In this document: positions 11,362 to 57,733 of the stretch, piece after piece
Layout: each line of letters opens with the position of its first letter
How positions within the stretch are numbered: position 1 is the stretch's first letter
Source of the DNA: Dehalococcoidia bacterium
GTDB lineage: Bacteria; Chloroflexota; Dehalococcoidia; UBA6926
Length of the DNA stretch: 64,000 nt
Reading direction: 5' to 3'
Assembly (NCBI GenBank): GCA_965247995.1
Contig: OZ252041.1
Location: 811,912 to 875,911, forward strand
Notes under the pieces: generated by a model
What the model was told of the DNA's origin: nothing
Database searches by the model: none
The model's input: only the letters and a program-made list of their open reading frames with translations
Translations under genes and position numbers: made by a program

Positions 11362-11420
11362 TGGGCTTCTCCTTGTCGTCATGTCAGTGGTGGCATGAGC
11401 ACCGGCGCGGAAACCACTCG

Positions 11421-11476
11421 TTGACTGTTCCTGCGCCTGCCGTTACTGTACCGCAAAGTAGTTTGTAACGTAAAGT
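11421..11476 (+). promoter_or_regulatory. Sigma70-type promoter of the ABC exporter with a tandem putative operator
   Basis: TTGACT(11421)-17 nt-TACTGT(11444), overlapped by two imperfect ACTTT..AAAGT-like sites (actgtaccgcaaagt, agtttgtaacgtaaagt). Confidence 0.5.
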
Positions 11477-11504
11477 TCGAGAGTCATCGAGGTGGGGGCA
11501 GGGC

Positions 11505-26640: not shown

Positions 26641-27396
26641 ATGGCGCAGTCGTTTCCTCGAAGACCGAACCGTCCAAATGGAGCGCGTCGCCCGGGGCGG
26701 TCGTTTCCGGCGGGGCCCGACGGTGCTCTGGACCTTAAAGCGGTCCTAGCGGAGGCTGAGTTCCGGGTATTCGGGCTTGACGGGCCGGCAGTCGGCCTCC
26801 AACTCCGCGGACTGGGTTGGGGCGGCGCGCCGTCGCAACCGATAAAACACATGTCGTTCACGTACCGAGGGATGGGCCGGGACCGTCTCATGGTGCAGGT
26901 ATCTGTTGAGTCTTCGCGCTCACGCCTGGGTGAGCCTCCATCCGTGCGTGATGCGCGAGAGTTACAAGCGATTCACAGCATCGTCTCCGAAACCAGCGCG
27001 GTTCCGCGTCTGATCGATCAGCTTCCAGCTGGGAAACGATGTCCCATGTTCATAGATCTGACACCAGCTTTGAAGGAGGCGGTACAGGCCAGGTTCTCCA
27101 AGTGGACTAATGCGATAGAGTCCGCCGATCGTCCGCCACTCGATTTCGTTCTGGATGGAGAGTCGGTGGTCGTCCGAACGGCCGAGTGGCCTGACGACGA
27201 CATCAGGTCCGCCACGATCTCGCTCGAGCAGGAAATCGTGGCGCTCGCGGGCTCTGGCCTCGCCGAGGACGGTTGGAGAGCGATCGTCGCCGGTCTGACT
27301 CCGTTGCGAGGCGATGCGGATGTTCTTGCGTGGCACCAGAGCGAACTGAACCGACTGAACGAGGAAGCTCAGACGCATCGACGGGACGAGCACTAA
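26641..27396 (+). CDS. Hypothetical protein
   Basis: 251-aa ORF starting MAQSF; FRVFGLDG segment and C-terminal WRAIVAGLTPL. Confidence 0.55.
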   Translation: MAQSFPRRPNRPNGARRPGRSFPAGPDGALDLKAVLAEAEFRVFGLDGPAVGLQLRGLGWGGAPSQPIKHMSFTYRGMGRDRLMVQVSVESSRSRLGEPPSVRDARELQAIHSIVSETSAVPRLIDQLPAGKRCPMFIDLTPALKEAVQARFSKWTNAIESADRPPLDFVLDGESVVVRTAEWPDDDIRSATISLEQEIVALAGSGLAEDGWRAIVAGLTPLRGDADVLAWHQSELNRLNEEAQTHRRDEH

Positions 27397-39139: not shown

Positions 39140-39188
39140 TTGACGCAAGTCGCTCATTTGTGCTACTGATGGTGCGAACATCGGTTCG
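39140..39188 (+). promoter_or_regulatory. lexA promoter with SOS box
   Basis: TTGACG at 39140 and TACTGA at 39164; perfect CGAAC-ATCG-GTTCG at 39175-39188 (Gram-positive/Chloroflexota LexA consensus). Confidence 0.85.
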
Positions 39189-39245: not shown

Positions 39246-39875
39246 ATGACCAGTCTGAGACCACGACAACGGGAAATCCTGAAGTTCATCGAGCAGTTCA
39301 TGGATGAGCGGGGGTACCCGCCGACGGTGCGGGATATCCAGCACGGGTGCGGGGTCTCGTCGACGAGTGTCGTGGACTACAACCTGCGGGCGCTGACGAG
39401 AGCGGGGTTGTTGAGGCGGTCTCGCGAGGTGTCGCGGGGGATCGAGCTTGTGGGCCGTCGGCAGCGGACGGCACGAGTCCCGCTGTTGGGGACGATCGCG
39501 GCGGGTCAGCCCTTGCCGGTCTTTCCGGCGGATCCGGCGGTGCTGGAGGAAGAGGACACAGTGGAAGTCGATGCCGATCTCGCACGCGACAGCGAGCGCC
39601 TCTTCGCGCTCCAGGTCAAGGGAGATTCGATGATCGACGCGCTGATCCGCGACGGCGACGTGGTGATTCTGCAGGCGCAGGAGTACGCCGAGAGCGGGGA
39701 GATGGTCGCCGCTTGGCTCGTCGATTCCGAGGAGACGACGTTGAAGCGTTTCTATCCGGACGGTCCGCGGGTGCGGCTCCAACCGGAGAATACGACGATG
39801 GGCCCGATCTACGCGGACGCGCGCAACGTCCAGATCAAGGGCCGGGTGGTCGGGGTGTTACGCCGGTACGCGTAG
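39246..39875 (+). CDS. lexA: SOS repressor LexA
   Basis: GYPPTVRDI, SRGI, cleavage site IAAG.P, GDSM (Ser), TLKR (Lys). Confidence 0.96.
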   Translation: MTSLRPRQREILKFIEQFMDERGYPPTVRDIQHGCGVSSTSVVDYNLRALTRAGLLRRSREVSRGIELVGRRQRTARVPLLGTIAAGQPLPVFPADPAVLEEEDTVEVDADLARDSERLFALQVKGDSMIDALIRDGDVVILQAQEYAESGEMVAAWLVDSEETTLKRFYPDGPRVRLQPENTTMGPIYADARNVQIKGRVVGVLRRYA

Positions 39876-43788: not shown

Positions 43789-44211
43789 TTAGTCGTGGAT
43801 TAGGCGCTGCACGATCCAACTCGTTGATGAACTAACCGTGCCAGCGAGCGCGATCAATCCCGCTACGCCAAGCACGACGAACACACCGGCCCAGCCGACG
43901 AAGACCATGAGGACAATCGCTCCGATTGTGCTGGCGATGCCGGGCAGGGATGTTGCAACTGCACGACCATGCCGGTTCCTCGAAGCAGCATTCGCTGACC
44001 AGGAGAAAGAGGCTGCAACGGTAGCCCCGACGAGACCGATTACGACCAGTAGCGGGATGCGCTGCACATACGACTCTTCAATAGGAGATGTGAGCAGCGC
44101 AAACCACGAAAACCCGACCCAGGCAACAATGATCACCGTCAGCACACGCAACAATTTCGCGTTCATGGCAGCGGATGGGCTCAACGGTCTTGCGAGAACG
44201 GGGGGCTTCAT
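43789..44211 (-). CDS. Hypothetical membrane protein
   Basis: 4 TM segments; ATGA overlap with the lysS stop; AT-richer codons. Confidence 0.5.
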   Translation of the reverse strand: MKPPVLARPLSPSAAMNAKLLRVLTVIIVAWVGFSWFALLTSPIEESYVQRIPLLVVIGLVGATVAASFSWSANAASRNRHGRAVATSLPGIASTIGAIVLMVFVGWAGVFVVLGVAGLIALAGTVSSSTSWIVQRLIHD

Positions 44212-45710
44212 TCGAGGGAGCGGAGTTGGGGGAAGAGGACGACTTCGCGGATGTTGGTCTGGCCGGTGAGGAGCATGACGAGGCGGTCGATGCCGATGCC
44301 GAGGCCCCCAGTGGGCGGCATGCCGTGTTCGATGGCTATGAGGAAGTCTTCGTCGAGGCGGTCGAAATCGTCAGCGCCGAATTCGCGGCGGGACTGCTCT
44401 TGGGTCTCGAGGCGGGCGCGCTGTTCGATGGGGTCGTTGAGCTCGGTGAAGGAGTTGGCGATCTCTGTGCCGCGGACGAAGGCCTCGAAGCGTTCGACGA
44501 GGCGCGGTTCGCCGGGGACGGCCTTAGCGAGCGGGGTCATCTCGACGGGGTAGTCGGTGAGGAAGGTCGGCTGGTGGAGTTGGGGTTCGACGATGTCGGA
44601 GACGAGCTTGTCGGCGAGTTGAGGCCAGGACGTTCCTTCGGCTGGGGTGAGGCTGCGGTCGCGCATGGCCTGTCGGAGTCCGTCGGCGGTGCGGAAGCGG
44701 TCGTCGAGGAGGTCGATGCCGTCGGACCAACGGCGGACGGCGTCGATGAGCGATAGGCGGATCCACGGGGGGGTGAGGTCGATGTCCGGGCCGTCCGCGC
44801 CGCTCGGCACGATCATGGAGCCGGTCACCTGTTCGGCGACGCTGGAGACCATCTGCTCGACCATCTCCATGACGTCGTGGTAGTCGGCGTAGGCCTGGTA
44901 GCTCTCGAGGGTGGTGAACTCGGGGTTGTGTGAGGCGTCGATGCCCTCGTTGCGGAAGATGCGGCCGATCTCGTAGACGCGCTCGAAGCCGCCGACGACC
45001 AGACGTTTGAGGTGGAGCTCGGTGGCGATGCGGAGGAAGAGGCGGCGGCTGAGAGCGCGGTGTTCGGTCTCGAAGGGGCGTGCCATAGCGCCGGCGGCGA
45101 GTGGGAGGAGTATGGGCGTCTCGACCTCCAGGAACCCGCGTTGATCCATGAAAGAGCGGACGGCGGCGGTGATCTGGCTACGGTTGCGGAAGATGTCGCG
45201 GACCTCGGCGTTGGCGATGAGGTCGAGGTAGCGCTGCCGGTAGCGCTGTTCGACGTCGCGGAGGCCGTGCCATTTCTCCGGTGGGGGACGGACGGCCTTG
45301 GCGAGGACAGTGAACGTGGCGACCTGGACAGTGTCCTCTTCGGTGCGGGTGCGGTACAGCGGGCCTTCGACGCCGAGGAAGTCACCGAGGTCGAGTTCTT
45401 TGAGGAGGGCATAGCGTTGGTCGCCGAGCTCGTCGCGGCGGAGGCTGACCTGGACTTCGCCAGTGCCGTCGCGGAGGACGATGAAGGTGAGGCGGCCCAT
45501 TCCACGGACGGCGACGATCCTACCAGCGACGGCGACGTGTGTGCCTTCCGCCGCGGCAGGCCCAGCCGCCATGGTCTGGTGGATGTCGGCGGCGGTGTGG
45601 GTGCGGTCGAAGCGGGGCGGGTACGGGTCGATGCCCTGGGCGCGGAGGCGTTCGAGCTTGGCGGTCCGCTGCTGGACGAGCTCGCTCTCCGAGGACTCGG
45701 CGGAAGTCAT
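44208..45710 (-). CDS. lysS: Lysine--tRNA ligase (class II)
   Basis: RYRQRYLDLI, LRIATELHLKRL, FRNEG..HNPEFT, GMPPTGGLGIGIDRL; start MTSAE. Confidence 0.96.
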   Translation of the reverse strand: MTSAESSESELVQQRTAKLERLRAQGIDPYPPRFDRTHTAADIHQTMAAGPAAAEGTHVAVAGRIVAVRGMGRLTFIVLRDGTGEVQVSLRRDELGDQRYALLKELDLGDFLGVEGPLYRTRTEEDTVQVATFTVLAKAVRPPPEKWHGLRDVEQRYRQRYLDLIANAEVRDIFRNRSQITAAVRSFMDQRGFLEVETPILLPLAAGAMARPFETEHRALSRRLFLRIATELHLKRLVVGGFERVYEIGRIFRNEGIDASHNPEFTTLESYQAYADYHDVMEMVEQMVSSVAEQVTGSMIVPSGADGPDIDLTPPWIRLSLIDAVRRWSDGIDLLDDRFRTADGLRQAMRDRSLTPAEGTSWPQLADKLVSDIVEPQLHQPTFLTDYPVEMTPLAKAVPGEPRLVERFEAFVRGTEIANSFTELNDPIEQRARLETQEQSRREFGADDFDRLDEDFLIAIEHGMPPTGGLGIGIDRLVMLLTGQTNIREVVLFPQLRSLE

Positions 45711-45901
45711 GGGGTCAATGCTATACCGCGAGCGGGGTTGGTTGGGGATGGGCGCTTGGCTGAGTGGTCCGGTGCGGTCGACGATGTGTCGCTGACAAAG
45801 GACACGCGTGCAACAGGTGATCCACAACGAGGTCTTGAAGCGCTGGCTCGATATAGACTGCGAGACCTCCGGGCAAGTCCAAGAAGTGCGGGGGAATAGC
45901 G

Positions 45902-46636
45902 TTGGAAGAGATCCTCCCTATCGTAATCGTCGGGGGCGCTGCCCTTGCGGCCTCCACGCTGGCGGCGGTGGCTGGATTCGGGGGGGCTGCGATCATGCTC
46001 CCCGTCCTGGTGTGGGCCTTCGGGATACGTGACGCGGTGCCGATTCTCACCATCGCCCAGTTGATGGGCAACCTCTCCAGGGTGTGGTTCAACCGGACGG
46101 ATTTGTCCTTTCCGGTGGTCAAGTGGTTCGGGTTTGGCGCGGTCCCTGCCGCGGTGGTAGGCGGCGTCGTGTTTGCCACTGCTCCCGTCGGCGCTCTGGT
46201 CCGTCTGCTGGGAATATTTCTGCTGCTCATGGTCGCCTACCGGCATAGTCCGTGGGGCAGGGAATCCCGGATAGGCCTGCGAGGTTTCCTTCCGCTCGGC
46301 GCAACTTCCGGGGCTATCTCAGCCTTGGTTGGGGTGGTCGGGCCGTTCATGGCGCCCTTTTTCCTCGCCTACGGCCTGGTCCGAGGCGCGTATATAGGAA
46401 CCGAAGCGCTGGCTACGGTGCTGATGCACGTCACGAAGTTGGGCGTGTACGGCAGCTACACACTCATAGACCTGAACAGCGGACTGGTCGGGGTCGCGAT
46501 AGGCTCCGTGATGTTCGCGGGGTCATACCTGGGGAAACAGATCCTGAACCGTCTGCCGGAGGCACGATTCCCATTGATCATCGACGCGGTCCTGTTGGTT
46601 GCCGGATTGCTCTTCATCATTCGGGGCGAACGGTAG
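45902..46636 (+). CDS. Sulfite exporter TauE/SafE family protein
   Basis: AGFGGA..LP, GVVGP, YIGTEA; 8 TM pattern. Confidence 0.85.
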   Translation: MEEILPIVIVGGAALAASTLAAVAGFGGAAIMLPVLVWAFGIRDAVPILTIAQLMGNLSRVWFNRTDLSFPVVKWFGFGAVPAAVVGGVVFATAPVGALVRLLGIFLLLMVAYRHSPWGRESRIGLRGFLPLGATSGAISALVGVVGPFMAPFFLAYGLVRGAYIGTEALATVLMHVTKLGVYGSYTLIDLNSGLVGVAIGSVMFAGSYLGKQILNRLPEARFPLIIDAVLLVAGLLFIIRGER

Positions 46637-46668: not shown

Positions 46669-47703
46669 TCAGTCGGTGATGCGCGCGGGGACGGCGAGGG
46701 TGGCGTTGTCCGGGTGGGTGCTAGTGGGGAACGGGGCGCCGGGGTCTGGGGATGCTGACCGGACCTGGAGGTCGAGCGCGGCGCCCAAGATGTCCGCGCC
46801 GACGTTGGATACGACCACTGCGAAGGCGATGAGCGTTACGGTTAGCTCTACGACTGGGTAGTCGCGTTGGTTGATCGCACCCACGAGCATGCGTCCGATG
46901 CCAGGGAGGCCGAACGCCTGCTCGGTGACGACGAGGGCCGTGACGGTCAGAGGGAGCATGACCGCGATCAAGGATACGGCTGGGATCAGGATGTTGGGCA
47001 ACGCATGGCGGAGGAGGACTGCGCGGTCGCGAAGCCCCCTCGCACGGGCGGTACGGATGTAGTCCTCGCGTAGGACCTCGAGTGTGGCAGTCCGGACGAA
47101 CCGCAATGGCACGCCCATGAGGAGGCCCGTGCCGATCACCAAGGCCGGCCAGATGAGCTGGGTGAGGTTCCTGACGGGGTCCTCCGTGAGGCGGGTGTAT
47201 TCACCGGTAGGATCCCAGCCGAACTCGCGGACGAGAACAAGAATGACAAGCATCCCGGCCCAGAAAGTGGGGACAGAGACGCCAGCTAGGGCCACAGTGC
47301 GCATGACAGAGTCGACCCAGGCGCCCCGTTTGAGGGCGGCGATAAGGCCGGCGGCGACGCCGAACGTCGAGCCGATGACGATGCCCAAGACACCGATCTG
47401 CGCACTGAGGGGGAGTTTCCGTTGCAGATACTGGCTCATGGGATCGTTGTGGAAGACCGAGTTTCCGAAGTCGAAGGTGAGAAGCCCGCGCACCCAGTCG
47501 AAGTACTGGACGTAGAGGGGCTCGTCCAGGCCTAGGTGCTCTCGGAACCTCGCTATGTGGTCGGGGTTCGGTACACCGCCGCCGGCGAGGATCGGCGGCG
47601 ACAAATCGCCTGGGACGATGCGCATGACGATAAAGACGAGGATTGTGACGCCGAAGAGGGTCAGCGCTGCGAGCAGGAGGCGGCGGAGGATGTAGGTCCT
47701 CAT
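46669..47703 (-). CDS. Peptide/nickel ABC transporter permease (DppB/OppB)
   Basis: YILRRL, PGD, GLDEPLYVQY, EAA loop EDYIRTARARGL, RDYPVV. Confidence 0.92.
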   Translation of the reverse strand: MRTYILRRLLLAALTLFGVTILVFIVMRIVPGDLSPPILAGGGVPNPDHIARFREHLGLDEPLYVQYFDWVRGLLTFDFGNSVFHNDPMSQYLQRKLPLSAQIGVLGIVIGSTFGVAAGLIAALKRGAWVDSVMRTVALAGVSVPTFWAGMLVILVLVREFGWDPTGEYTRLTEDPVRNLTQLIWPALVIGTGLLMGVPLRFVRTATLEVLREDYIRTARARGLRDRAVLLRHALPNILIPAVSLIAVMLPLTVTALVVTEQAFGLPGIGRMLVGAINQRDYPVVELTVTLIAFAVVVSNVGADILGAALDLQVRSASPDPGAPFPTSTHPDNATLAVPARITD

Positions 47704-47853: not shown

Positions 47854-48812
47854 CTACGTGCGGATCCGGGGGTCGAGTATCCCGTAGAGGACGTCGACGC
47901 CGAGGTTGGACAGGACGACGATGAACCCGACGAGGGTGACGACGAGCTGGACAACCGGGTAGTCACGCTGGTTGATGGCGTCGACCATCATGCGGCCGAT
48001 TCCGGGGAGGCCGAACACCTGCTCGGTGACCACGAGCCCGGTCACGGTGAGGGGGAGGAAGATCCCGATCAGCGTGACGACCGGTATGAGAGCGTTCCGC
48101 ATGGAGTGCCGGATGAGGACGACGCGTTCGCGGAGCCCCTTTGCCCGGGCGGTGCGGATGTAGTCCTCGCGCAAGACCTCGAGCATGGTGGCGCGCATCA
48201 TCCTGAGCGGGGTGCCCATGAGGAATCCGACGGCGATGACCATGGTGGGCCAGATGAGTTGCGCGAGGTTCCTGATGGGGTCCTCCCACACGGGCGTGTA
48301 TCCCTGCTCCGGGATCCAGTCGAACATGTGGATGAGGAACAGGATGACGAGCATTCCGCTCCAGAAGGTGGGGATGGAGATGCCGGCAATGGCGACCGTC
48401 CGGATGAGGTAGTCGATCCAGGTGTCCTGCTTGAGGGCGGCGATGACTCCGCCGGCGATGCCGAGCGTCGAGCCGATGACGATGCCCATCACGCCGATCT
48501 GAGCGCTAAGAGGGAGTTTGCGTTGCAGAAGCTGGCTCATGGGGGCGTTGTAGAAGAGCGAGCTCCGAAGTCGAAGGTGACGATCCCGCGCATCCAGTCG
48601 AAGTACTGGACGTAGAGGGGCTCGTTCAGGCCCAACTTCTCTCGGAGCCTCGCCAAGTCTTCCTGGTTTGGTACGCCGCCGCCTTCACCACCGCTGAGAA
48701 TCATCATCGCGACATCGCCGGGGACGATGCGCATGACGATAAAGACGAGGATTGTGACGCCGATCAGCGTCGGCACGCCGAACATAAGGCGCCGGAAAAT
48801 GTATGCCCACAT
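47854..48812 (-). pseudogene. DppB-type permease paralog with a 1-nt frameshift near 48563
   Basis: ORFs 48537-48812 and 47854-48540 join into a full DppB if one base is restored (FDFG-x-SLFYNAPMSQ versus paralog FDFGNSVFHNDPMSQ); this could be a sequencing error. Confidence 0.8.
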
Positions 48813-49031: not shown

Positions 49032-49505
49032 TTAGTCGACTTTGACGATGGAGTAGGTGATGACGCCGGCAGGGGCGAGGACCTGGACCTTGTCGCCCTT
49101 GCGGTGGCCGAGGACGGCGCGTCCGACGGGGGATTCATTGGAGATCTTGCCGTGGGCGGCGTCGGCCTCAGCGGTACCGACGACGGTGTAGGAGTCCTCG
49201 TCGCCGTCATCGGTCCGGAGCGTGAAGCGGGACCCGATTTGGATCCGGCCTCCGGGGGCGTGGCCCTCTTCGATGAGGACGGTGTTCTTGAGGAGGTTTT
49301 CGATCTCGAGGATGCGGCCCTCAACGAAGGCCTGTTCGTTGCGGGCATCTTCGAAGTCGGAGTTCTCCTCGGTACCGGCGAGCTCCTTGGCCTTATGGAG
49401 GCGGTCCATGACCTCGAGGCGACGGACGGACTTGAGCTGCGTGAGCTCGCCCTCGAGGCGTTCGCGGCCTTCGGCGGTCAAGTATGTCTGTCTCTGCGTC
49501 GTCAT
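49032..49505 (-). CDS. greA: Transcription elongation factor GreA
   Basis: YLTAEG..L..EL, ENSDFEDAR, ISNESPVGRA.LG. Confidence 0.95.
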   Translation of the reverse strand: MTTQRQTYLTAEGRERLEGELTQLKSVRRLEVMDRLHKAKELAGTEENSDFEDARNEQAFVEGRILEIENLLKNTVLIEEGHAPGGRIQIGSRFTLRTDDGDEDSYTVVGTAEADAAHGKISNESPVGRAVLGHRKGDKVQVLAPAGVITYSIVKVD

Positions 49506-49723: not shown

Positions 49724-50272
49724 CTACTCCAGGGCAGGTGTAGGGGCCGCCGCGGTCGGTTCGGGCGTTGGGATGACTGGGCCAGGGGTGGGGGCGGCTG
49801 GGTCGGGTGTCGGGGCGGTCGGATCCGGCGTGGGGGTTGGCGTGGACGTCGGTCTGGGGGTGTTGGTGGGTTTGGCGGTCTCGTAGGGGACCCAGACGCG
49901 GACGGGCTCGGTGGGGGTGCCCTCTTCGTTGCCCCGGACGAGCAGCGCGCGGAAGTAGTAGGCGCGGCCGGGACGGTAGATGGCGGATTCGCGGTGGGTG
50001 CCGGTTACGGGCCGGAGGGTGGCAATCTCCTCCCACGGGCCTTGATCGGAGGTCCGGGACTCTTCGATGACGATGAGGTCGACGGAGTCGTCGGGAGGAA
50101 TCCATGAGACCTGGACATCGCGAGAGCCGGCGACGGGCTCGCCGGGCAGGAGCCGTGCCTGGAAGGAGAGGGTGTTGGACGCGGGCAGCGGTCTGAAGTT
50201 CTGGGAGATGCCCGAGCACGCGACAACGAGGCCAAAGAGGACCACGACGACTGCAACGACGGTTCCGCGCAC
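49724..50272 (-). CDS. Lipoprotein with FN3-like domain and Pro/Thr-rich tail
   Basis: Lipobox VVAC; VQVSW..YYFRA beta pattern; PTPTP repeats. Confidence 0.7.
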   Translation of the reverse strand: MRGTVVAVVVVLFGLVVACSGISQNFRPLPASNTLSFQARLLPGEPVAGSRDVQVSWIPPDDSVDLIVIEESRTSDQGPWEEIATLRPVTGTHRESAIYRPGRAYYFRALLVRGNEEGTPTEPVRVWVPYETAKPTNTPRPTSTPTPTPDPTAPTPDPAAPTPGPVIPTPEPTAAAPTPALE

Positions 50273-50434
50273 ACTCCACCTCGAGTAGTCCGGCCGCGTC
50301 GACCGCGGCGTTTGAATCGACTGTACACGGATTGAGGAGGTAAGAGCAGCATGGTGCGTTGTGGCGGCCCCACTGGCCGGGTTGACGTGAACCGTTTAGA
50401 GAGGCGAGTGGGGAGGCACGTCGTCATGATGGCG

Positions 50435-50463
50435 TTGACGGATTAGCACATTCGTTCTAGTGT
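50435..50463 (+). promoter_or_regulatory. Sigma70 promoter with a LexA-like operator in the spacer
   Basis: TTGACG(50435)-17 nt-TAGTGT(50458); AGCAC-ATTC-GTTCT at 50445-50458 is one mismatch from AGAAC-N4-GTTCT. Confidence 0.65.
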
Positions 50464-50497
50464 TCTGTGTCGAATTCGCTAACTGAACGCAGGGGGA

Positions 50498-50899
50498 GTG
50501 AGCGTGGCGACCAAGACACAGGGACCGAGCGTGGCGACCAAGACACAGGGACCGAGCGTGGTCCGCCGGGGGACGGGGAGCCGACGGCGTTTGGACACGC
50601 TGCCGGAGCGGTCCGAGTACCGCGACGACGGGTGCGGTGGGGGATGCGAGCGTTCGCTGGAGTGCCCGTTCCCGCGTTGCCGGCTTGATGACCCGATGGG
50701 TTGGCGGCGGGAGGCGCGCGTGATCCGGGACCGGGAGCTTGTGCGGGTCTATGCGGCGGAGGGGTTGACGGTCGACGGGTTGGCGTCGCGGTTCCAGGTC
50801 AGTCGCCGGACGGTGCACCGGGTGCTTTCGGACGCCCGGAAGGCGCGAATCCGTGGGGAGGCCCGAATCCGTAAGGGCGCGGGGGCTGGTGCGACGTGA
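50498..50899 (+). CDS. Cys4-motif plus C-terminal HTH protein (putative regulator)
   Basis: GGGGGA RBS; C-x3-C-x5-CP-x3-C; RDRELV..GLTVDGLASRFQVSRRTVHRVL HTH. Confidence 0.78.
   Translation: MSVATKTQGPSVATKTQGPSVVRRGTGSRRRLDTLPERSEYRDDGCGGGCERSLECPFPRCRLDDPMGWRREARVIRDRELVRVYAAEGLTVDGLASRFQVSRRTVHRVLSDARKARIRGEARIRKGAGAGAT
50500..50561 (+). repeat. 27-bp in-frame tandem repeat (2.3 copies)
   Basis: GAGCGTGGCGACCAAGACACAGGGACC twice plus GAGCGTGG; encodes SVATKTQGP twice. Confidence 0.9.
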
Positions 50900-51438
50900 C
50901 GTCCGACGAATCTCCCGCTCCTGCTGCAGGCGGGCGCAGGAGGCGTCGTGGTGTCGGGAAGCGCGACGAACAGCGGTACGAGGACTTCGTGTGGGCGGTC
51001 GCCCGCGGCGCGACGCACGCGGAAGCAGCCGCGGCCGCCGGGATCGCGCGGACGACGGCGATGCGTTGGGCAAAGTCTGCCGGGTTCGACACGTATGTGG
51101 CCGCGGCGGCCAACGACAGCGTGGCGATGTTGCGGAAGCGGGCGTTCGAGCTAGCAATGGGTGGGAACATCCGGCTGCTCATTTGGTTACTCGAGCACCG
51201 CGGGGTGATCGGAGAGCGAGAGGACGGTGGTCCGGACGGGCCGCCGGCTGAGCATGGTCCGGCGGGAGTGGTAGAGGTCGAGATCGTGGGGTTGGAGCGG
51301 AGGGATGCCGACGATGGCGAAAGCAGCAACAGCGGCGGGGGCGGCGGCCGGCACGCGCCGGCCGAGCCGGGAGACGCCGGAGGGGCGTTCATCGAGTTCG
51401 TCGAGGACGACGGTGGGGGCGTCATCGACGGCACGTAA
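50896..51438 (+). CDS. Putative terminase small subunit (HTH)
   Basis: GATHAEAAAAAGIARTTAMRW HTH, helical middle ending GNIRLLIWLLEHR, flexible tail; GTGA overlap upstream and overlap with terL downstream. Confidence 0.65.
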   Translation: MTSDESPAPAAGGRRRRRGVGKRDEQRYEDFVWAVARGATHAEAAAAAGIARTTAMRWAKSAGFDTYVAAAANDSVAMLRKRAFELAMGGNIRLLIWLLEHRGVIGEREDGGPDGPPAEHGPAGVVEVEIVGLERRDADDGESSNSGGGGGRHAPAEPGDAGGAFIEFVEDDGGGVIDGT

Positions 51439-52642
51439 GGTCCGGATCCGGGTCCACGAGGGGCAACGGCGGCTGCTGGCGAGCGATGCGTTCTGCACGG
51501 CGGCGATTGCCGGGACGGGCGGCGGTAAGACGGTCGCCGGGATGGTGTGGTTGTTGGTGCAGATGACGCGGAACCCAGGCCGGACGTGGGTCGTGGCGGA
51601 GCCGACGGACGACATGGTCGAGCGGGTCCTTTTGACTGGCACCGCGGACCGGCTGGGGCTTGTCGACTTTCTGGGGTTGTTCGACCCGCACCAGGTATGG
51701 CTTCGATCGAAGGGGGTGCTGCGGCACCGGTTGGGGACGGTGTTTGTGGTGTCGGCACGGAACCCGGAGACGTTGCAGGGCGCCCACGTGGCGGGGGTCT
51801 GGCTGGACGAGGCCGGTCTGATGCGGATGGGGGCCTGGCTGGTGGCATTGCAGCGGGTTGGGCTGGCGGAGGGACGGATCCTGATTACGACGACGCCATA
51901 CAACAAGGGTTGGCTGAAGACGGAGGTGTACGACCCAGCGATGGAGGGGAACCGGGACTACGCGCTGATCCAGTTCCCATCGACGGCGAACCCGCGGTTC
52001 CCGGCGGTGGCGATGGAGCGGGCGCGGCGGTCAATGTCGGCATCGCGGTTCGCAATGTTGTACCGGGGGGAGTTTGGGCGGCCAGAGGGGATGGTGTACG
52101 ACTGCTTCGATTCGTCGGAGCACATCGTGGAACCGTTCGAAATCCCACGCGATTGGCGGCGGTTGGGCGGGATCGATTTCGGGTACAACAACCCGACCGC
52201 GGGGGTGTTTCTGGCGCGTGACCCGGACGGCGTCTACTACTGGTATGGGGAGCACTACGAGCGGGAACGGACGCTGGACGAGCACGCGGCGCAGTTGGCG
52301 AAGCTGGGCGGGCGCGAGTTGACGTGGTATGGGGACCGGAGCGCGGCCCAGCAGATGGCGGAGCTGCGGCGGAACCGGCTGTCGGTGCTGCCGGCGGATA
52401 ACGACGTGCGCGCAGGGATCGACACCGTGTATTCGTTGTTGGCGTTGGGGCGCTTGAAGGTGTTCCGTTCGTGCCGGTTCGGGATCAACGAGCTCGAGGG
52501 GTACGTGTGGGAACAGCGTCCCGGCGGGGACGGGGCGGGGTTCGTCGACCGGCCGGTGAAGGAAGACGACCATTTGATGGACGCGTTGCGGTACGCGTTG
52601 CATACGACGGAGAAAGGACCGGCGTTGCGGTTGCGGACGTGA
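51413..52642 (+). CDS. Phage terminase large subunit (PBSX/Terminase_6-like)
   Basis: HEGQ adenine motif, Walker A AGTGGGKT, Walker B VWLDEAG, coupling motif TTTP, nuclease GIDFGYNNP, D.SA, DHLMDALRY; GTG start with GAGG RBS. Confidence 0.92.
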   Translation: MGASSTARKVRIRVHEGQRRLLASDAFCTAAIAGTGGGKTVAGMVWLLVQMTRNPGRTWVVAEPTDDMVERVLLTGTADRLGLVDFLGLFDPHQVWLRSKGVLRHRLGTVFVVSARNPETLQGAHVAGVWLDEAGLMRMGAWLVALQRVGLAEGRILITTTPYNKGWLKTEVYDPAMEGNRDYALIQFPSTANPRFPAVAMERARRSMSASRFAMLYRGEFGRPEGMVYDCFDSSEHIVEPFEIPRDWRRLGGIDFGYNNPTAGVFLARDPDGVYYWYGEHYERERTLDEHAAQLAKLGGRELTWYGDRSAAQQMAELRRNRLSVLPADNDVRAGIDTVYSLLALGRLKVFRSCRFGINELEGYVWEQRPGGDGAGFVDRPVKEDDHLMDALRYALHTTEKGPALRLRT

Positions 52643-52729
52643 GGTCGGGCGGGGGTGCCGCTGGTACGCGGGACCTATAGCGCGTTGGTATACGATCGCG
52701 AAGGAGTCCGCCATCGAGGCCAGGTGACA

Positions 52730-53371
52730 ATGATGAAGTCGACAGCATCAGCGGGGTTGGCCGCTTTGGCTGTCCTCTTGGCGATTTTGGGTTGTTCTGC
52801 TCGCTCAGGGGGTTTGGCGGCCGTCGACGAGCCGGAAGCAGCGGGCGATGACGTGGTTTCGGTCCCGGCGAGGGTCACGCAACTCGGGTTTCCGGTCCTG
52901 TATCCGGCATTCATGCCGCCCGGCTACGAGCTGATCAGCGTGGACCTCAGCCCTCATTGGGACTCCAAGGTTGTTTTCGTGTCCGGTCCTCCCGGAGCTA
53001 CTTGGAACCTGGACGGTGGGAACTGGAAGCAGGGAGGGCTCTACATCATCACCATGGGCGTCCACGCGGGCGCTCCGCTTCCTCCGTTCGGACAGATCGT
53101 GAACCCGCATGAGCGCATCGAGGTCGCCGGCCGCTCTGTATACCTCATTCAAGGACAAAGTGACCCGGTGTTTTCTCTCGCCGAGGGGTCGCCGGAGCGG
53201 CGTCCAACTGGACCGAACGGCGAGGAGCTCCTGTTTGAACCAATCGACGTTCTTGGTCTTGACCTGGAACTGGATGGGTTCTTGGTCTCGATGTCGGCGA
53301 TCCCGCCGCATTCATCAACGCCCGAGGTACTCATCAAGATCGCGGAATCCCTCGTATTGGTAGGAGCGTAG
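52730..53371 (+). CDS. Lipoprotein, DUF4367-like
   Basis: Lipobox ILGC; FPVLYPAFMPPGY; C-terminal PEVLIKIAESL. Confidence 0.7.
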   Translation: MMKSTASAGLAALAVLLAILGCSARSGGLAAVDEPEAAGDDVVSVPARVTQLGFPVLYPAFMPPGYELISVDLSPHWDSKVVFVSGPPGATWNLDGGNWKQGGLYIITMGVHAGAPLPPFGQIVNPHERIEVAGRSVYLIQGQSDPVFSLAEGSPERRPTGPNGEELLFEPIDVLGLDLELDGFLVSMSAIPPHSSTPEVLIKIAESLVLVGA

Positions 53372-53495: not shown

Positions 53496-56400
53496 CTAGA
53501 CGGTGAGGCGGCGGTAGAGGTGGGGCAGGCGCTCTGGGAGGCTGTTGATGTCGGCGAGGACCTCGTACGGGAGGTCGCCGCACATCTCTTTCATGTAGTC
53601 GTGGCCGGAGCGATCTACGGTGAGGCAGAAGGGGATGATGCCGTGCGAGCGGGCCTCGAGCAGCGCCATGTGCGTGTCCTGGACGGCGTATTCCTTCTCT
53701 GCGCCTTCGCGGCTGTACCCGCGGTCCTGGGGCCGGCCGTCTGAGATGAGGAAGAGGACCTTGGTGCGGGCGTTGATCTCGTCGAGCTTGGCGGTGCCGT
53801 GGCGGATGGCGGGGCCCATGCGGGTGGCGTGGAGCGGCGTAATGCCATCGATCCGGCGCTGGATGGTGTCCGACATCGGTTCTTCGAGCGCCTTGATGGT
53901 GTAGTACTCGACGTTTTCGCGTCCGTAGCCGGAGAAGCCGTAGATGCCGTAGGTGTCGCCGATCGTCTCGAGAGCCCGAATGAGGAGGACGGTGGACTCT
54001 TTCTCGAGGTCGATGATGCGGCGGTAGCTGCGTTTGGCCTGCTCGCGGCGGGCGCGGAGCCAGAAGAGGTACTGTCGCGGGTCGTCCGGGATCTCGCCCT
54101 CGTCGTCGTCATCGGCGGGTTTGTCCTCGATGGCTTCGGCGGTGGATGCGCTCATATCGAGGAGGAAGATGACGGCGACATCGCGCTCGGTCTTGTTCCT
54201 GCGCCAGTAGACCTTCTCGTTGGGGGTTGTGCCGGAGCGGCGCTCGACGATGGCCTCGATGACGGAGTCGAGGTCGTATTCCTCGCCGTCGGGGAGGTGT
54301 TTTTCCTTGCGGTAGGTCTCCGGCATGATCATTTCGAACTGCCGGCGGACGTCGTTGATGAGGCTGGCGTACTGCTCAATGGTCTGGCGGTAGAAGTCGG
54401 AACTGCCCTCGGCGATGACGGTCTCGCGGATCCGGCACCAGCGGGGTTTGTAGTCGAGGGCTTGGAAGTCCCACTCGTCGTAGAGGGCGGTGCGGGGTTC
54501 GTCGTCGAGTGGGTTCTCGGACTCCTGGGGTTTTCTGCCGGAGCCCGTCTCGCCCATCTCGTCGTGGAACTCGGCGTCCGGCCCCTCGATGGCCTCGCTC
54601 ATGAGGCTGGAGACGAAGAGCCCGGACGGGTCGTCGATGTCGCCTTCGACGACGTTGGAGAGGTCGATCTCGGCGCTCTTTTCGAGGAGTTGGCGGATCA
54701 TCTCCTCGGTGAGGGGAGGCGCCTGAGTGGTCTCGTCGGTCTTCTGGCCGCCCTTGCGAAGGTTGGCGAGGGTCTGGACGAGCTCGGGTTTGAAGTCACC
54801 GCGGTAGTCGACCTCTTCGGGGGGCTCGTACGGGACGTCCTGCTCGGTGCCCTGTCCGGGGACGAACTGGTTGCCACCGACGGTGGATGAGTCGGCGTCC
54901 GAGATCTCGGCTGTCGGGTCCGGTGCGCCCGCGCCGAGTTCACCAACGTCCTCTTCCTGCCAGTCGAAGTCGTCCTGGGGCGGCAGGTTGGGCACATCGA
55001 CGAGGAGTTTGTAGATAAGCGCCGTGGCCTCGGTTGAGTCCTCGACGGTGGAGTCGATGTGGCGCAAGCGAAGGAGGACTCCTGCGACGCGTTGGACGGT
55101 GTCGTGGAGCTCCATGGGCACGGGGATCGTGGAGGGCGAGTCCAGGAGGGTCATGCGCACGAGGAGCTCAACGAGGGCCTGCCGGAGCGGGAGGTCTTGC
55201 GGGGCGGGCCGTCCGTGAACCGCCGCCATCTGTACTTTGTCGTACGCGTTGCGGAGGCCGGCGTAGAAGCTGCGGATAAGGAAATCGACGCGCGAACCCT
55301 CGACGGCGGAGAAGATATCGGAGGCGAGTTGACGTTCCTCGAAGGTGTCGAAGAAGCGCTCGAAGTCCGAGAGGGCGGCGTCGAGGCCGGGGATCTCGCT
55401 CTTGTCTTCGGCGTCGTCCCCGTTCGGGGAGGGGCGCGTCAGCACCGGTGCGAGGCGAGCAAGGATCCGATTGGTAGCAGGGAAGACGCTTGAGGGGCGG
55501 CTGGTGGAGAACTGGAAGCTCCCGAACTCGATGTGGCCCGCCTGGTGGGTGGTGAGCACTTTGTACCACCCGAAGTTGTCGGGTTTGGAGTCGAAGAGTG
55601 CGATCTCATCGGGAAGAAAGATCGAGAGCCCGTCCGTGGTTGGCCGTGCTTCGCCGGCCCATCCGAGGGTGCGGCGGGCGAGGTCCGGTGTCGGTCTGAG
55701 TTGGATCTCGCTACCCGCGAGGCCGCGGGCGTACATCTGGAGAACGGTCGCGCTCTCCTCGAGGTTCACGGTGGCCGAGAGTTCTTGGATGATCGCTTCG
55801 CCGCGGGCGGACTCGAGTTTGAAGAAGCCGATGCCGGCTGCGTCGTTCTGTTCGAGGATGCGGACGCCTTCCTGGTACCAGCGGTTGAGTGCACCGGCGT
55901 CGACGCGCTGGAGGACTGGCGGCGTGGCACGAAGGAATTCAACCGCGGCTTCCTGAGAGAGGCCGAGGAGCACTTCGAACATGTCGAGGGTGGAGTGGTG
56001 GAGGTGGACGTCCAAGTCGTCGAGCGCGCGTGAGCCCTCGGCGAGCAGCGAGAGATAGCGTTTGCCGCGTTGCTGGGCCATGGCGCCGGCGAAGTCGAGG
56101 AAACGACCGCGCTCAGCACGGGCGATCCGCGGGAGTGCGACGGCTGCGGCGCGCTGGGTCTCCTTGGCGTACTTCCAGCCCTGTTCGGCGGTGAGATTGA
56201 GGAGGCCGAGGTAGCTGTCGATGGTCTCGCCGTCCACGTAGGAGAAACACTCGGGAGCGATGTTGAGGCACTCCTCGGCAAGCTCGCTGGAGTGCTGAGC
56301 GATCTGGTCGAGGAAGGCGGCGAATGCGGTGACGTCCGTGAGGCGGACGTGGTCCAGGAGGGTGGGACTGAGCTCAAAGAAGCGGGCAGCGAGGGCACCG

Positions 56401-56819
56401 GATTTCCATGTGCCGTGGTAGAGGCGTCGGCCAGATTCGACCCAACCCGGGAGATGAACGGAGGTCTGGGCGGCTAGGAACCGCGGGCTGGAACGAAAGT
56501 ACGCGCTGGAGACCGTAGCGGACGAACCGGAAAGGTCTTTACCGCCGGTGGTCCAGACCGGGAGGTCGTCCGCCTCGACAGTATCGAGGACGGCCACGGT
56601 GGCACGGAAGTACTCGACGGTGGCCTCCCACGCGCGGAACGATGCCCGTGCGATGGTGAGTCCGTCCGCGAGCCAGGCGTCGTAGGCGGAGTCGGAGAGT
56701 CGCCGTTGAGCGACGACGGAGGCGTCACGATAGGCCTGTCCAACGGCCGCCGGCAGGGCCCCGATCTGGTCGAGGAGCTCCTGGCGGGTGGGTTCGATCA
56801 GCGGGCGTTCTTCAACCAC
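53496..56819 (-). CDS. CbbO/NorD-family VWA protein
   Basis: TDGLSIFLP, HQAGH, YDEWDF..Y.P.WC, DGEEYDLD, MIDAS DMSAS, TRMGPAIRH, SDGRPQD. Confidence 0.88.
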   Translation of the reverse strand: MVEERPLIEPTRQELLDQIGALPAAVGQAYRDASVVAQRRLSDSAYDAWLADGLTIARASFRAWEATVEYFRATVAVLDTVEADDLPVWTTGGKDLSGSSATVSSAYFRSSPRFLAAQTSVHLPGWVESGRRLYHGTWKSGALAARFFELSPTLLDHVRLTDVTAFAAFLDQIAQHSSELAEECLNIAPECFSYVDGETIDSYLGLLNLTAEQGWKYAKETQRAAAVALPRIARAERGRFLDFAGAMAQQRGKRYLSLLAEGSRALDDLDVHLHHSTLDMFEVLLGLSQEAAVEFLRATPPVLQRVDAGALNRWYQEGVRILEQNDAAGIGFFKLESARGEAIIQELSATVNLEESATVLQMYARGLAGSEIQLRPTPDLARRTLGWAGEARPTTDGLSIFLPDEIALFDSKPDNFGWYKVLTTHQAGHIEFGSFQFSTSRPSSVFPATNRILARLAPVLTRPSPNGDDAEDKSEIPGLDAALSDFERFFDTFEERQLASDIFSAVEGSRVDFLIRSFYAGLRNAYDKVQMAAVHGRPAPQDLPLRQALVELLVRMTLLDSPSTIPVPMELHDTVQRVAGVLLRLRHIDSTVEDSTEATALIYKLLVDVPNLPPQDDFDWQEEDVGELGAGAPDPTAEISDADSSTVGGNQFVPGQGTEQDVPYEPPEEVDYRGDFKPELVQTLANLRKGGQKTDETTQAPPLTEEMIRQLLEKSAEIDLSNVVEGDIDDPSGLFVSSLMSEAIEGPDAEFHDEMGETGSGRKPQESENPLDDEPRTALYDEWDFQALDYKPRWCRIRETVIAEGSSDFYRQTIEQYASLINDVRRQFEMIMPETYRKEKHLPDGEEYDLDSVIEAIVERRSGTTPNEKVYWRRNKTERDVAVIFLLDMSASTAEAIEDKPADDDDEGEIPDDPRQYLFWLRARREQAKRSYRRIIDLEKESTVLLIRALETIGDTYGIYGFSGYGRENVEYYTIKALEEPMSDTIQRRIDGITPLHATRMGPAIRHGTAKLDEINARTKVLFLISDGRPQDRGYSREGAEKEYAVQDTHMALLEARSHGIIPFCLTVDRSGHDYMKEMCGDLPYEVLADINSLPERLPHLYRRLTV

Positions 56820-56839: not shown

Positions 56840-57733
56840 CTATTCGAAGATGCTGGTGATGATCTCATTGATGCTGCGCTGGACAGCGAGGTCATCAGTC
56901 AGGGCTTCGGCGATGGCGACGGAGCACGCGCGCCGCGGTTCGATGCCGCCGTTCATGAGGCGGGCAGCGTAGATGAGCAGCCGGGTGCTGACACCCTCCT
57001 GGAGACCGTGCTCCTTGAGATTGCGGACCTTCTCCGCCAGACGGGCAAGGGAGTCAGCACGATCGGTGTCGACGCCGCTCTCCCGGTGGACGATCGCTGC
57101 CTCCATGTCCTTATTGGGGTAGTTGAACTCCATGGCGATAAAGCGTTGGCGCGTGGATTGCTTGAGGTCTTTAAGCGCGCTCTGATAGCCGGGGTTGTAG
57201 GAGATGACGAGCAGGAAGCCGTCAGCAGCGGAGATGATTTGGCCACGCTTCTCAATGGGGAGCAAGCGCCGGTGGTCGGTGAGCGGGTGGATGAGGACGG
57301 TGGTGTCCTTGCGGGCCTCCACGACCTCGTCCAAGTAGCAGATCGCGCCGGTCTTGACGGCACGGGTGAGGGGTCCGTCGATCCACTTGGTCTCTTCACC
57401 TTCGAGGAGGTAGCGGCCGACGAGGTCGCTGGCAGTGAGGTCCTCATGGGCGGCGATGGTGACGAGGGGCTTGCCGGTTGGGGCATCGCCGTCGCTGCCG
57501 TTATTGGTCCCGTGGACCGAGGGGATGGGGCGACCGAGACGCCACGCCATGTACTCGATGAAGCGGGTCTTGCCGCAACCGGTGGGGCCTTTCAGGAGGA
57601 CCGGGATCTTCTGCTGGTAGGCAGCGGTGAAGACCTCGATCTCGTCGCGGACAGGGAGGTAGTACGGTTCCACATCGATGGTGTACTCCTCGATCTCGTA
57701 GCCGCGATAGGTTTCAACCTGTTCGGTAGTCAT
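56840..57733 (-). CDS. CbbQ/NirQ/NorQ-family AAA+ ATPase
   Basis: [56 protein letters not shown]. Confidence 0.95.

Follow-up and report, generated by a model that had tools for sequence, protein, structure and literature searches.

The window analyzed here is a 64,000-nt stretch of the genome of a Dehalococcoidia bacterium (UBA6926; assembly GCA_965247995.1, contig OZ252041.1, positions 811,912-875,911 of the forward strand), which we refer to as G000. It contains a cassette of three genes, predicted to encode a DNA-binding protein with four cysteines and a helix-turn-helix (HTH) domain (ORF1), a TerS-like protein, and a large terminase subunit (TerL), preceded by a promoter-like region with a LexA-type box (Table 1). 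The original prediction described overlapping genes with host-like, GC-rich codons, and both descriptions hold. The TerS start overlaps the ORF1 stop (GTGA), TerL (start GTG 51413) overlaps TerS by 26 nt, and the GC3 of the cassette genes is 0.80-0.87, similar to that of neighboring genes. The cassette DNA is present in four sequencing runs (one sample, one study), none of them RNA runs, and reads mapped over the module revealed no indels and no joints.

Table 1. Features of the cassette and its surroundings (positions within the window)
Feature	Position	Strand	Remarks
Reference LexA box CGAACATCGGTTCG	39175..39188	+	perfect; 58 nt upstream of lexA
hyp182, lipoprotein-like gene, divergently transcribed	49724..50272	-	no family match
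Promoter-like region	50435..50463	+	TTGACG 50435-50440, 17-nt spacer, TAGTGT 50458-50463
LexA-type box GCACATTCGTTC	50446-50457	+	within spacer; 7/8 core bases of GAAC-N4-GTTC
Shine-Dalgarno-like GGGGGAG	50492..50498	+	about 5-7 nt before GTG 50504; read from sequence
27-bp tandem duplication across ORF1 start region	50494..50547	+	duplicates peptide VATKTQGPS
ORF1, Cys4 + HTH protein, predicted DNA-binding	50498..50899	+	likelier start GTG 50504
TerS-like, N-terminal HTH, Gly/acidic-rich C-terminus	50896..51438	+	start overlaps ORF1 stop (GTGA)
TerL, ATPase + RNaseH-like nuclease domain	51413..52642	+	likely start GTG 51413; frame open from ATG 51305

The cysteines of ORF1 (C46, C50, C56, and C61) lie in a motif Y-x-D-x-GC...C-L-x-CP-x-P-x-C, and the HTH is C-terminal. 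Every Pfam HTH match is below the cut-off (E about 2e-4), and phrog_836, annotated as a late transcriptional activator, is matched at 8e-5. The predicted structure (mean pLDDT 70) is confident only in the C-terminal three-helix HTH; when this model was searched against the PDB with Foldseek, nothing passed E<=0.001 and only generic HTH domains came up. ORF1 is a member of an undescribed Cys4+HTH family without a known repressor partner. The Shine-Dalgarno-like region in front of it (CAGGGGGAG) is shared with G001 and G002, genomes of two sister species in the same genus that are 69% and 62% complete, so that a gene not found in either is weak evidence of absence. The 27-bp duplication at the ORF1 start is single-copy in both, and Logan contigs break there.

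The TerS-like protein matches phrog_4102 (5e-6) and phrog_4044 (4.5e-3), with Pfam HTH matches below threshold, and shares 38-42% identity with the TerS of L043 and L045, two of the loci that carry relatives of the window TerL. The N-terminal ATPase domain of TerL is matched by PF03237 (27.4 bits, cut-off 22) and the C-terminal RNaseH-like nuclease domain by PF17289 (51.8 bits, cut-off 22.6); the protein also matches phrog_2 at 1e-42. Both sets of motifs are intact, as had been proposed: TerL keeps 49/49 columns invariant across 25 family members, including AGTGGGKT and WLDEAG, which we take to be the Walker A and Walker B motifs, and D291, D422, and D426 lie in columns invariant across 25 homologs. 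Because it scores 52.3 bits against the NCBIfam equivalog TIGR01547, under the cut-off of 105.05, we assign TerL at the superfamily level only, to the Terminase_6/PBSX-type proteins. Its start is placed at the internal GTG since homologs are about 405 aa long.

Members of the ORF1 family occur in 36 of 41 Dehalococcoidia genomes, and in 24/24 genomes of the bacterial family. Elsewhere in the class they belong to a set whose other members include a terminase and a portal; we label these genes ORF1', TerL', and portal'. The order TerL'-ORF1'-portal', with ORF1' between the other two, is found in 11 loci. We detected portal' in 233/401 Dehalococcoidia genomes and a class-wide capsid, 57-76% identical across most families, in 83/151. 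In the g2 lineage the capsid gene is 46-115 kb from TerL'-ORF1'-portal' (5/5 genomes). This set is widely distributed in a vertical-looking pattern, has low dN/dS, and is split in some lineages; judged by these genes, the class-wide locus is a putative phage-derived, GTA-like, partly dispersed head-gene set that includes ORF1 and its promoter. A GTA-like set split over several loci, as the original prediction envisaged, does exist in the class. Among the titles returned by a literature search, none pointed to a GTA-like system in Dehalococcoidia.

The TTGACG-17-TAGTGT sequence with a box in its spacer is present as first described, and so is the perfect box upstream of the genome's own lexA (39246-39875; TIGR00498, 183 bits). 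The LexA of Dehalococcoides reportedly uses a GAAC-N4-GTTC-type operator. The recA gene of G000 has two one-mismatch boxes, and one of them, GCAC-N4-GTTC (GCACAAACGTTC), has the same form as the cassette box. The window contains 35 one-mismatch boxes against 27.4 +/- 5.3 expected, which is no enrichment, so the cassette box is at chance level alone and gains significance only from the conservation of its position. That position is shared by G001 and G002, and a composite TTGAC-N5-7-[GAAC-N4-GTTC, <=1 mismatch]-TA is found upstream of the homologous locus in 22/30 Dehalococcoidia loci (controls, 1/30). Perfect boxes precede ORF1' in G026, which has two, and in G040. The GAAC core is mismatched at the same position in all three species of the genus (bases C, T, T), and LexA may therefore bind weakly or not at all. 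A generic promoter scan called nothing in 50250-52800, and terminator-like sites there are weak only; the scan misses the cassette promoter because the -10 element matches only 3/6 positions. We read the cassette promoter as having the layout of a conserved LexA-type operator that overlaps a promoter, and predict that the cassette is probably SOS-driven. The earlier claim of SOS-box control would draw on the conserved layout and not on the single box.

The cassette lies among ordinary genes, as predicted. Family scans identify greA, CbbQ, a VWA CbbO-like gene, and lysS, and two more flanking proteins without a family match have lipobox-like N-termini (read from sequence). Homologs of hyp182 (40-48%) are divergent from the cluster or from ORF1' in G009, G011, and G006, and hyp182 is a conserved neighbor of the ORF1 locus in other genera. 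The flanking host genes are common to G001 and G002, in which the contig ends on the greA-hyp182 side and upstream of ORF1 do not overlap, leaving the left-flank adjacency unsupported there. The module is indeed an orphan: no portal, capsid, or integrase gene adjoins it in G000 or G002, no att repeat or pseudogene debris was found beside it, no flanking repeats are convincing, and PF00589 (integrase) has no match within the 64-kb window, a part of whose ORFs were annotated. No defence genes were identified beside the cassette. PADLOC gave no match for TerS, TerL, or either flanking protein, and a weak WYL match for ORF1 (E 5.5e-4).

Structural genes elsewhere in the genome had been proposed; no portal or capsid partner was found. 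Whole-genome scans covering portal and capsid families (PF04860, PF05065, and PF05133; HK97/SPP1 portal and HK97 capsid) gave zero matches in G000, and portal' and the class-wide capsid are absent as well. Both were also not found in G001, G002, and three g3 genomes. In G000 the host flanks of the class-wide capsid island are directly adjacent to each other. A tblastn search of G000 with the 13 proteins of L043 returned only TerS, TerL, a weak match to TerL2, a weak adaptor-like match in a prophage, and a marginal match (E 0.005) for the 99-aa ORF. This prophage-like block extends from an integrase match at 1,175,840 to about 1,213,508 and contains RecT, a DnaC-like loader, a terminase of its own (TerL2), a portal-like 612-aa protein (Atlas score 0.98), and a tail-like protein. 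Neither G001 nor G002 yielded a TerL2. This unrelated prophage, with its own TerL, holds the only other phage structural genes of G000.

In a quick tree with SH-aLRT support, the window TerL groups with L043 in a clade of 5 rows (support 95), nested in a 26-row clade (99) that also contains L045, L046, and L047; TerL' and TerL2 are remote from it. L043 is a circular element of 13,032 bp, and L044, which comes from a replicate assembly, crosses its junction. L046 is 12,943 bp long with a 123-bp terminal overlap (circular). Both encode an adaptor, portal, TerS, TerL, HNH, protease, and capsid. L047 contains a distant ORF1-like gene and no SOS box; in a tblastn search of the TerL loci L004-L125 (E<=1e-3), ORF1 was not found except on the G002 contig. 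Related elements circulate in similar metagenomes, and truncated homologs of TerL occur on large contigs (P0038, 247 aa; P0114, 308 aa). From its position in the tree, we predict that TerS-TerL is derived from a lineage of ~13-kb capsid-forming mini-elements. This nesting among small mobile elements does not support the domesticated GTA-like system first suggested.

At E<=1e-20, TerS-TerL is found in 1/24 other genomes of the family and 3/400 other genomes of the class; we found it in this genus only, and not in the other 22 family genomes searched. The module of G000 is 74% identical at the nucleotide level to that of G002, and host genes are 74-84% identical. Homology between these genomes stops about 10 bp past the TerL stop, giving them a shared, portal-less right boundary. 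The dS of TerL is 0.69-0.80 and its dN/dS is 0.13-0.17, compared with 0.72-1.14 (one 1.69) and 0.07-0.24 for host genes; dN/dS is 0.34-0.37 for hyp182 and 0.28 for TerS (vs G002). When neutral evolution was simulated, 1.35% of runs retained an open TerL ORF at 0.1 substitutions/site, and 0/2000 did so at 0.2. The strain SNPs in TerL number 10, of which 8 are synonymous. TerL is intact, and purifying selection has maintained it while the genus diverged; the cassette appears to be inherited with the host inside the genus. The TerL of G002 has a 1-bp deletion after Walker B that shifts the frame, and TerS and TerL are deleted in G001, so any selection is not universal. Within the genus the module has diverged in step with host genes, yet close relatives carry it only in part, with one sister species frameshifted, another deleted, and no copy found in the other family genomes searched.

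The explanation that we prefer, and to which we would give even chances, is an orphan terminase cassette, specific to this lineage and probably under SOS control, that was grafted onto a degenerate copy of an old phage-derived locus. The promoter with its LexA-type operator, ORF1, and the divergent hyp182 would be this genus's copy of an ancient head/packaging locus, which elsewhere in the class runs from the promoter through small ORFs, TerL', and ORF1' to portal', in some cases followed by scaffold and capsid. In this genus, the terminase, portal, and capsid that originally belonged to that locus were not found. A different TerS-TerL pair, from the ~13-kb mini-element lineage, would now follow ORF1 immediately, its start codon overlapping the ORF1 stop, placed there either by replacement or by recombination with an element bearing an ORF1-like gene. 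DNA damage would lead to LexA cleavage and derepress the promoter, and ORF1, TerS, and TerL would be made from one transcript, as the gene overlaps suggest. Since no cognate portal or capsid is encoded, the cassette presumably cannot make particles alone; it may be used in trans with capsids from other elements or phages, or such use may have been lost only recently. Of the damage-inducible packaging motor originally proposed, the orphan state, the purifying selection, and the LexA-type operator layout remain, and the portal and capsid partners elsewhere in G000 do not; TerS-TerL occurs in a single genus, where it is disappearing. More tentatively, and with rather less confidence than in this grafted cassette, we suggest that the class has inherited vertically an ancient GTA-like head and packaging system under LexA control, contiguous in some lineages and divided between distant loci in others, and that this genus lost its capsid and portal and re-used the SOS promoter and regulator for a captured, selected TerS-TerL acting in trans (capsid piracy or interference with related elements).

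The cassette could instead be a decaying relic of a prophage or of a ~13-kb capsid-forming element that had integrated; it would be functionless, heading for deletion, and intact in G000 only through recent loss of its partners. The rarity of the pair in the family and class, the frameshift and the deletion in the sister species, the nesting of TerL among mobile elements with truncated homologs on large contigs, and the lack of partner genes in G000 are all consistent with this. A neutral ORF would not have stayed open in the simulation, however, and the low dN/dS at host-like dS, the mostly synonymous strain SNPs, the portal-less boundary common to G000 and G002, and the clean surroundings argue against it; we regard a relic as possible but unlikely. 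Purifying selection on a TerL that lacks an encoded partner, together with the retained nuclease and ATPase motifs, the stress-type promoter, and the related elements in similar metagenomes, would also fit an SOS-induced TerS-TerL repurposed to cut DNA or block the packaging of phages or 13-kb elements, or to serve as a damage-response nuclease, with no capsid needed. The PADLOC results and the lack of identified defence neighbors speak against such an enzyme, as does its loss in the sister species, and the titles found in a literature search offered no precedent. We consider it improbable.

A working multi-locus GTA in G000, in which the cassette packages host DNA and the structural genes lie elsewhere on the chromosome, is in our view very improbable. 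The dispersed capsid of the g2 lineage offers a model for it, and the portal-like and tail-like proteins of the distant block could be candidates for its parts, but that block, with its integrase, RecT, loader, and TerL2, looks like an ordinary prophage, and its terminase was not found in the sister species. The family scans detected no portal or capsid partners, so G000 cannot be a working GTA by itself, and the closed-up site of the capsid island also weighs against this reading.

If the grafted cassette is functional, a terminase has been kept by selection without a genomic capsid or portal, which would point to a role outside self-contained virions. The locus also points to a phage-derived head-gene set across Dehalococcoidia that has an SOS-type operator. 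If particles are made from that set, Chloroflexota would gain a GTA-like system, and there would be a concrete route by which genes are exchanged in an ecologically important class that is largely uncultured.

Several known systems resemble parts of this locus. LexA is linked to the control of the Rhodobacter capsulatus gene transfer agent (RcGTA), and the coliphage 186 antirepressor Tum is LexA-repressed. The cassette is similar to LexA-controlled phage switches of the latter kind in having a small regulator gene behind a LexA-type operator that overlaps a promoter, but ORF1 is from an undescribed family with no known repressor partner, and the operator is of the GAAC-N4-GTTC type. RcGTA-type GTAs (Rhodobacter capsulatus, Caulobacter) are phage-derived head and packaging genes that are host-regulated and sometimes multi-locus (PMC5026251, PMC9632790). 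The class-wide Dehalococcoidia set is like them in its vertical-looking distribution, low dN/dS, and split loci; it differs in being a candidate system predicted from its genes. The cassette is further removed, given that G000 has no capsid or portal for it and that TerS-TerL is confined to one genus and comes from a mobile-element lineage.

Capsid-forming phage-inducible islands (cfPICIs), phage satellites described from Proteobacteria and Firmicutes, lack tail and holin genes; their core consists of integrase, regulator, primase, HNH, TerS, TerL, portal, adaptor, connector, capsid, and protease (PMC10085698). L043 and L046 have 7/11 of these genes (HNH, TerS, TerL, portal, head-tail adaptor, protease, and capsid) and no tail match among the ORFs scanned. 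The 10 ORFs scanned in each element included no identifiable integrase, primase, or regulator, and the window holds only TerS and TerL. Like a cryptic prophage remnant, the cassette is a phage-origin pair left behind in a chromosome; its occurrence among relatives is patchy, and sister species are deleting it. Unlike a remnant, it has no integrase, att site, or debris, its TerL ORF is intact with host-level dS and low dN/dS, and TerS-TerL sits behind a promoter that is conserved across the class.

The 1.96-Mb genome (G000; GC content 62.7%) is a single contig, on which the window lies at G000:C1:811912-875911. Three overlapping same-strand ORFs fill the module: ORF1, a TerS-like gene and TerL. 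The ORF1 protein has four cysteines (C46, C50, C56, C61) followed by a helix-turn-helix (HTH), with sub-threshold HTH matches in Pfam (E about 2e-4) and a match to phrog_836, "late transcriptional activator" (8e-5). An alignment of 18 family members retains the pattern Y-x-D-x-GC...C-L-x-CP-x-P-x-C and an RT-x-x-R helix. Confidence in its AlphaFold model is limited to a C-terminal three-helix domain, for which Foldseek returned nothing except generic HTH domains. The TerS-like protein matches small-terminase PHROGs (5e-6). TerL passes both Pfam terminase domains, matches phrog_2 (1e-42) and conserves 49 of the 49 columns invariant among 25 relatives; its start is probably GTG 51413, since the relatives are ~405 aa long. 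The 27-bp tandem duplication at the ORF1 5′ end repeats the GTG start context, is present as one copy only in G001 and G002 (other species of the genus), and is where Logan contigs break in 4/4 runs. In G001 lysS adjoins greA, which marks the TauE-permease block of G000 (about 45.9-48.8 kb) as inserted or rearranged. Of the window's 64 1-kb bins, 58 have positive GC skew (mostly +0.1 to +0.25), with a near-unbroken cumulative rise; the entire window seems to belong to a single replichore whose skew is unusually strong.

Features of the window and of related loci (window positions unless a contig is named)
Feature	Position	Strand	Remark
tRNA-Gln(CTG)	27217-27313		ARAGORN call; 97 nt, unusual length for a tRNA; may be intron-bearing or miscalled
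lysS	44208-45827	-	
TauE	45902-46636	+	
ABC permease gene, first of two	46669-47703	-	
ABC permease gene, second of two	47854-48812	-	apparently split: 91-aa N-terminal ORF 48537-48812 and 228-aa ORF 47854-48540, 4-nt overlap
greA	49032-49505	-	
hyp182	49724-50272	-	lipoprotein-like, 182 aa
27-bp tandem duplication	50494-50547		
Module	50498-52642	+	
Lipoprotein-like gene	52730-53371	+	213 aa
CbbO-like	53496-56819	-	
CbbQ	56840-57733	-	
Phage-like block	G000:C1:1175840-1213508		outside window
Integrase match	G000:C1, 1,175,840		in phage-like block
ORF1 paralog	G000:C1:1181901-1182176		55% identity; in phage-like block
TerL2	G000:C1, 1,194,979-1,196,226		in phage-like block
Further SOS-like promoters	G000:C1:288904-288935, 982929-982951, 1221357-1221700		last is that of recA
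Class-wide set, L157/L158	G009:C1:730836-735789		
Class-wide set, L164	G009:C1:675007-679651		
Class-wide set, L159	G011		
Class-wide set, L163	G039:C1		opposite-strand 812-aa ORF at 9300-11738
Class-wide set, L165-L194			
L043 degenerate tandem repeats	about 5698-6096		

With TerL as query, one of the 24 other family genomes matched (G002) and none in the family's other genera; across the class, 3 of 400 other genomes had a match with E<=1e-20, all three with identities of 33-42%. G002 has ORF1, TerS and TerL in the same order, at 74% nucleotide identity, on par with regional host genes (74-84%). Pairwise Nei-Gojobori comparison of G000 and G002, in which synonymous sites are near saturation, gave dN/dS of 0.13-0.17 for TerL (dS 0.69-0.80), 0.28 for TerS (dS 1.26), 0.27 for ORF1 (dS 1.01), 0.07-0.24 for CbbO, CbbQ, lysS, greA and two neighbours (dS 0.72-1.14, one 1.69) and 0.34-0.37 for hyp182 (dS 0.82-1.03). 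Within the genus the module is thus host-inherited, by its host-like identity and dS, and its TerL is constrained, both as the original prediction held. In a neutral simulation (substitutions only, 2000 runs) the frame of TerL was still open in 1.35% of runs at 0.1 changes/site and in 0 at 0.2, and 8 of the 10 TerL differences in a variant contig from the source sample are synonymous. On dN/dS, this simulation and the mostly synonymous strain differences, selection held TerL across essentially the whole genus divergence.

The G002 TerL carries one 1-bp deletion immediately after Walker B, explicable as an error in the MAG or as loss that set in very recently (G002 is 62% complete). In G001 (69% complete) ORF1 is intact and near CbbO as in G000; TerS and TerL were unmatched by tblastn, and an unrelated gene occupies the TerS-TerL gap, with a short N-terminal TerS trace visible by eye. 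The three-gene synteny sought in relatives is present in G002, but TerS-TerL was found only within the genus, and not in G001. Downstream of TerL, G002 has ccdA, the ortholog of which lies 210 kb off in G000. Homology ends about 10 bp past the TerL stop in both genomes, and because this boundary is common to them the portal-less state probably predates their split.

The module is an orphan, as predicted: its flanks are ordinary genes, and whole-genome family scans of G000 found no PF04860, PF05133 or PF05065 match (control genomes were positive). The portal, capsid and protease of L043, an element with a TerL relative, had no tblastn match in G000. The structural partners expected elsewhere in the genome were thus not found by these scans, and the second terminase, TerL2, belongs to a probable separate prophage. 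After the integrase, its block encodes RecT, the ORF1 paralog, a DnaC-like loader and MazG-like genes. A 612-aa protein following TerL2 is placed by ESM Atlas among viral portal clusters (0.98), and the block also has large ORFs of unknown function, 752 aa and 1330 aa long, and one of 745 aa that is tail-like; from this gene content it is probably a divergent, otherwise ordinary prophage. It adjoins an ATP-synthase-side host block, the same one that flanks the island of the sister genus g2, described below. TerL2 was absent from searches of the incomplete G001 and G002 genomes, so this prophage cannot account for long-term selection on the cassette.

We predict an SOS-like operator ahead of the module, in agreement with the original prediction. 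The GAAC-N4-GTTC box is attributed to Dehalococcoides LexA. The window contains 35 such boxes with <=1 mismatch against 27.4 +/- 5.3 expected, and a single box is unremarkable. A perfect box lies 58 nt upstream of lexA, and recA is preceded by GAACATCCATTC and GCACAAACGTTC, each with one mismatch, the second sharing the GCAC...GTTC form with the module box. G002 (GTACATATGTTC) and G001 (GTACATTTGTTC) share a conserved promoter region with G000. Before ORF1 homologs of more distant Dehalococcoidia there are perfect boxes at the same position in G026 (TTGACA...GAACATGTGTTCTAATAC then GAACATATGTTC) and G040 (GAACAAACGTTC), and one-mismatch boxes in G039, G009, G006 and G011. We scanned 30 loci from diverse families, each retrieved with the conserved gene that comes first in the homologous cluster, for the composite TTGAC-N5-7-[box, <=2 mismatches]-TA. 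It occurs upstream on the coding strand in 22/30 loci, with <=1 mismatch in 22/22, and in only 1/30 in control scans (same strand downstream; both opposite strands). The composite is thus a conserved LexA-type operator, and TTGACggattaGCACATTCGTTCta in the window matches its layout exactly. The core mismatch falls at one same position in all three species of the genus, so any LexA binding at the module box may be weak. Among the further SOS-like promoters, one is TTGACgagaGAACGTTTGTTCtatatt, with a perfect box, and another, TTGACccgagcGCACGAATGTTC, has the GCAC form and 6-nt spacing, both as in the module.

Of 41 relatives, 36 have an ORF1 homolog, among them 24/24 family genomes. In g2 and other families these homologs belong to a cluster (11 loci) of a 120-aa gene, a 107-aa gene, TerL' (PF17289, 2e-5), ORF1' and portal' (PF05133, 5.5e-17). 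A hyp182 homolog lies divergent beside the cluster in G009 and G011; in G006 its neighbour is an ORF1' that stands alone. Of 401 sampled class genomes, 233 have portal' (a count including G257, flagged unpublished), mostly as a single copy; among high-quality genomes the figure is 183 of 299, and by genus it is 136 of 223. The 120-aa gene was found in 74/151 genomes and a capsid gene (phrog_212 major head protein, 4.6e-73) in 83/151, most full-length capsid matches having 57-76% identity across families. Between G009 and G011, dN/dS is 0.18 for TerL' and 0.105 for portal' (dS about 1.0-1.1). G039 has a contiguous set of TerL', ORF1', portal', a 191-aa gene and capsid; there the 812-aa ORF sits between TerL' and ORF1', interrupting the otherwise contiguous cluster. 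In 5/5 g2 genomes the sole capsid gene is 46-115 kb from the TerL'-ORF1'-portal' island, and in G009 host genes bound both islands. We regard the set (SOS-type promoter, 120-aa and 107-aa genes, TerL'-ORF1'-portal' and capsid) as a candidate gene transfer agent (GTA)-like system. It is widespread and mostly single-copy, strongly constrained, split between loci in some lineages and headed by a host-type operator, as would be expected of such a system once domesticated; no description of one in Dehalococcoidia was found in the literature, judged by titles.

G000 lacks TerL', portal' and the class-wide capsid, and the host genes flanking the G009 capsid island are adjacent in it. Neither portal' nor capsid matched in G001, G002 or three genomes of another genus, g3, some of them incomplete. 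The original prediction's idea of a dispersed GTA-like system is relevant to the class, where a split set exists, but G000 itself is without a portal or capsid family match. A working dispersed GTA within G000 is highly improbable, since its encoded genes cannot build particles.

The module's TerS-TerL has other relatives. Among 8000 candidates scored, 587 TerL relatives were found at E<=0.001, many on contigs of 12-17 kb. The closest are P0004 (93% identity; 1.15-Mb contig that also has an ORF1 homolog, P0125), the G002 copy (about 81%; 3.2-kb contig) and P0005 (79%; 7.5-kb contig), followed by relatives at 64-70% on small elements such as L043. In a quick maximum-likelihood tree, window TerL groups with P0004 and P0005 (SH-aLRT 100) in a clade that falls within a 5-row clade including L043 (95), itself within a 26-row clade including L045, L046 and L047 (99); TerL2 and TerL' are remote. 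In this tree the window's TerL thus nests with those of ~13-kb elements.

We read the locus as a chimera, whatever its present function, and give this about even credence. On this reading it keeps part of the old system (SOS-type promoter, ORF1 and the divergent hyp182), the terminase, portal and capsid of which were not found in G000, and a TerS-TerL pair of the 13-kb element lineage sits directly behind ORF1. The cassette is specific to the genus and under loss in relatives. That the module is instead a functionless relic is unlikely, though the foremost of the alternatives; TerL shows the constraint described. A repurposed nuclease or interference device, for which the intact terminase domains would serve, is more doubtful still.

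The putative donor lineage of the chimera comprises elements of ~13-14 kb, of which two assemble as circles. L043 (13,032 bp) is circular or concatemeric, since a replicate-assembly contig (L044) spans its end-to-start junction; among its genes are those for TerS and TerL, for a portal in convergent orientation (PF04860, 2e-59), and for a head-tail adaptor, protease, major head protein and HNH endonuclease. L046 (12,943 bp, terminal overlap 123 bp) has the order adaptor-portal-TerS-TerL-HNH ... protease-capsid, and L047 (14,128 bp) has the same head genes and a distant ORF1-like gene. Only head and packaging genes, and no integrase or primase, were seen among the ORFs scanned, which cover part of each element. 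The three elements are similar to capsid-forming PICIs in the sense of PMC10085698.
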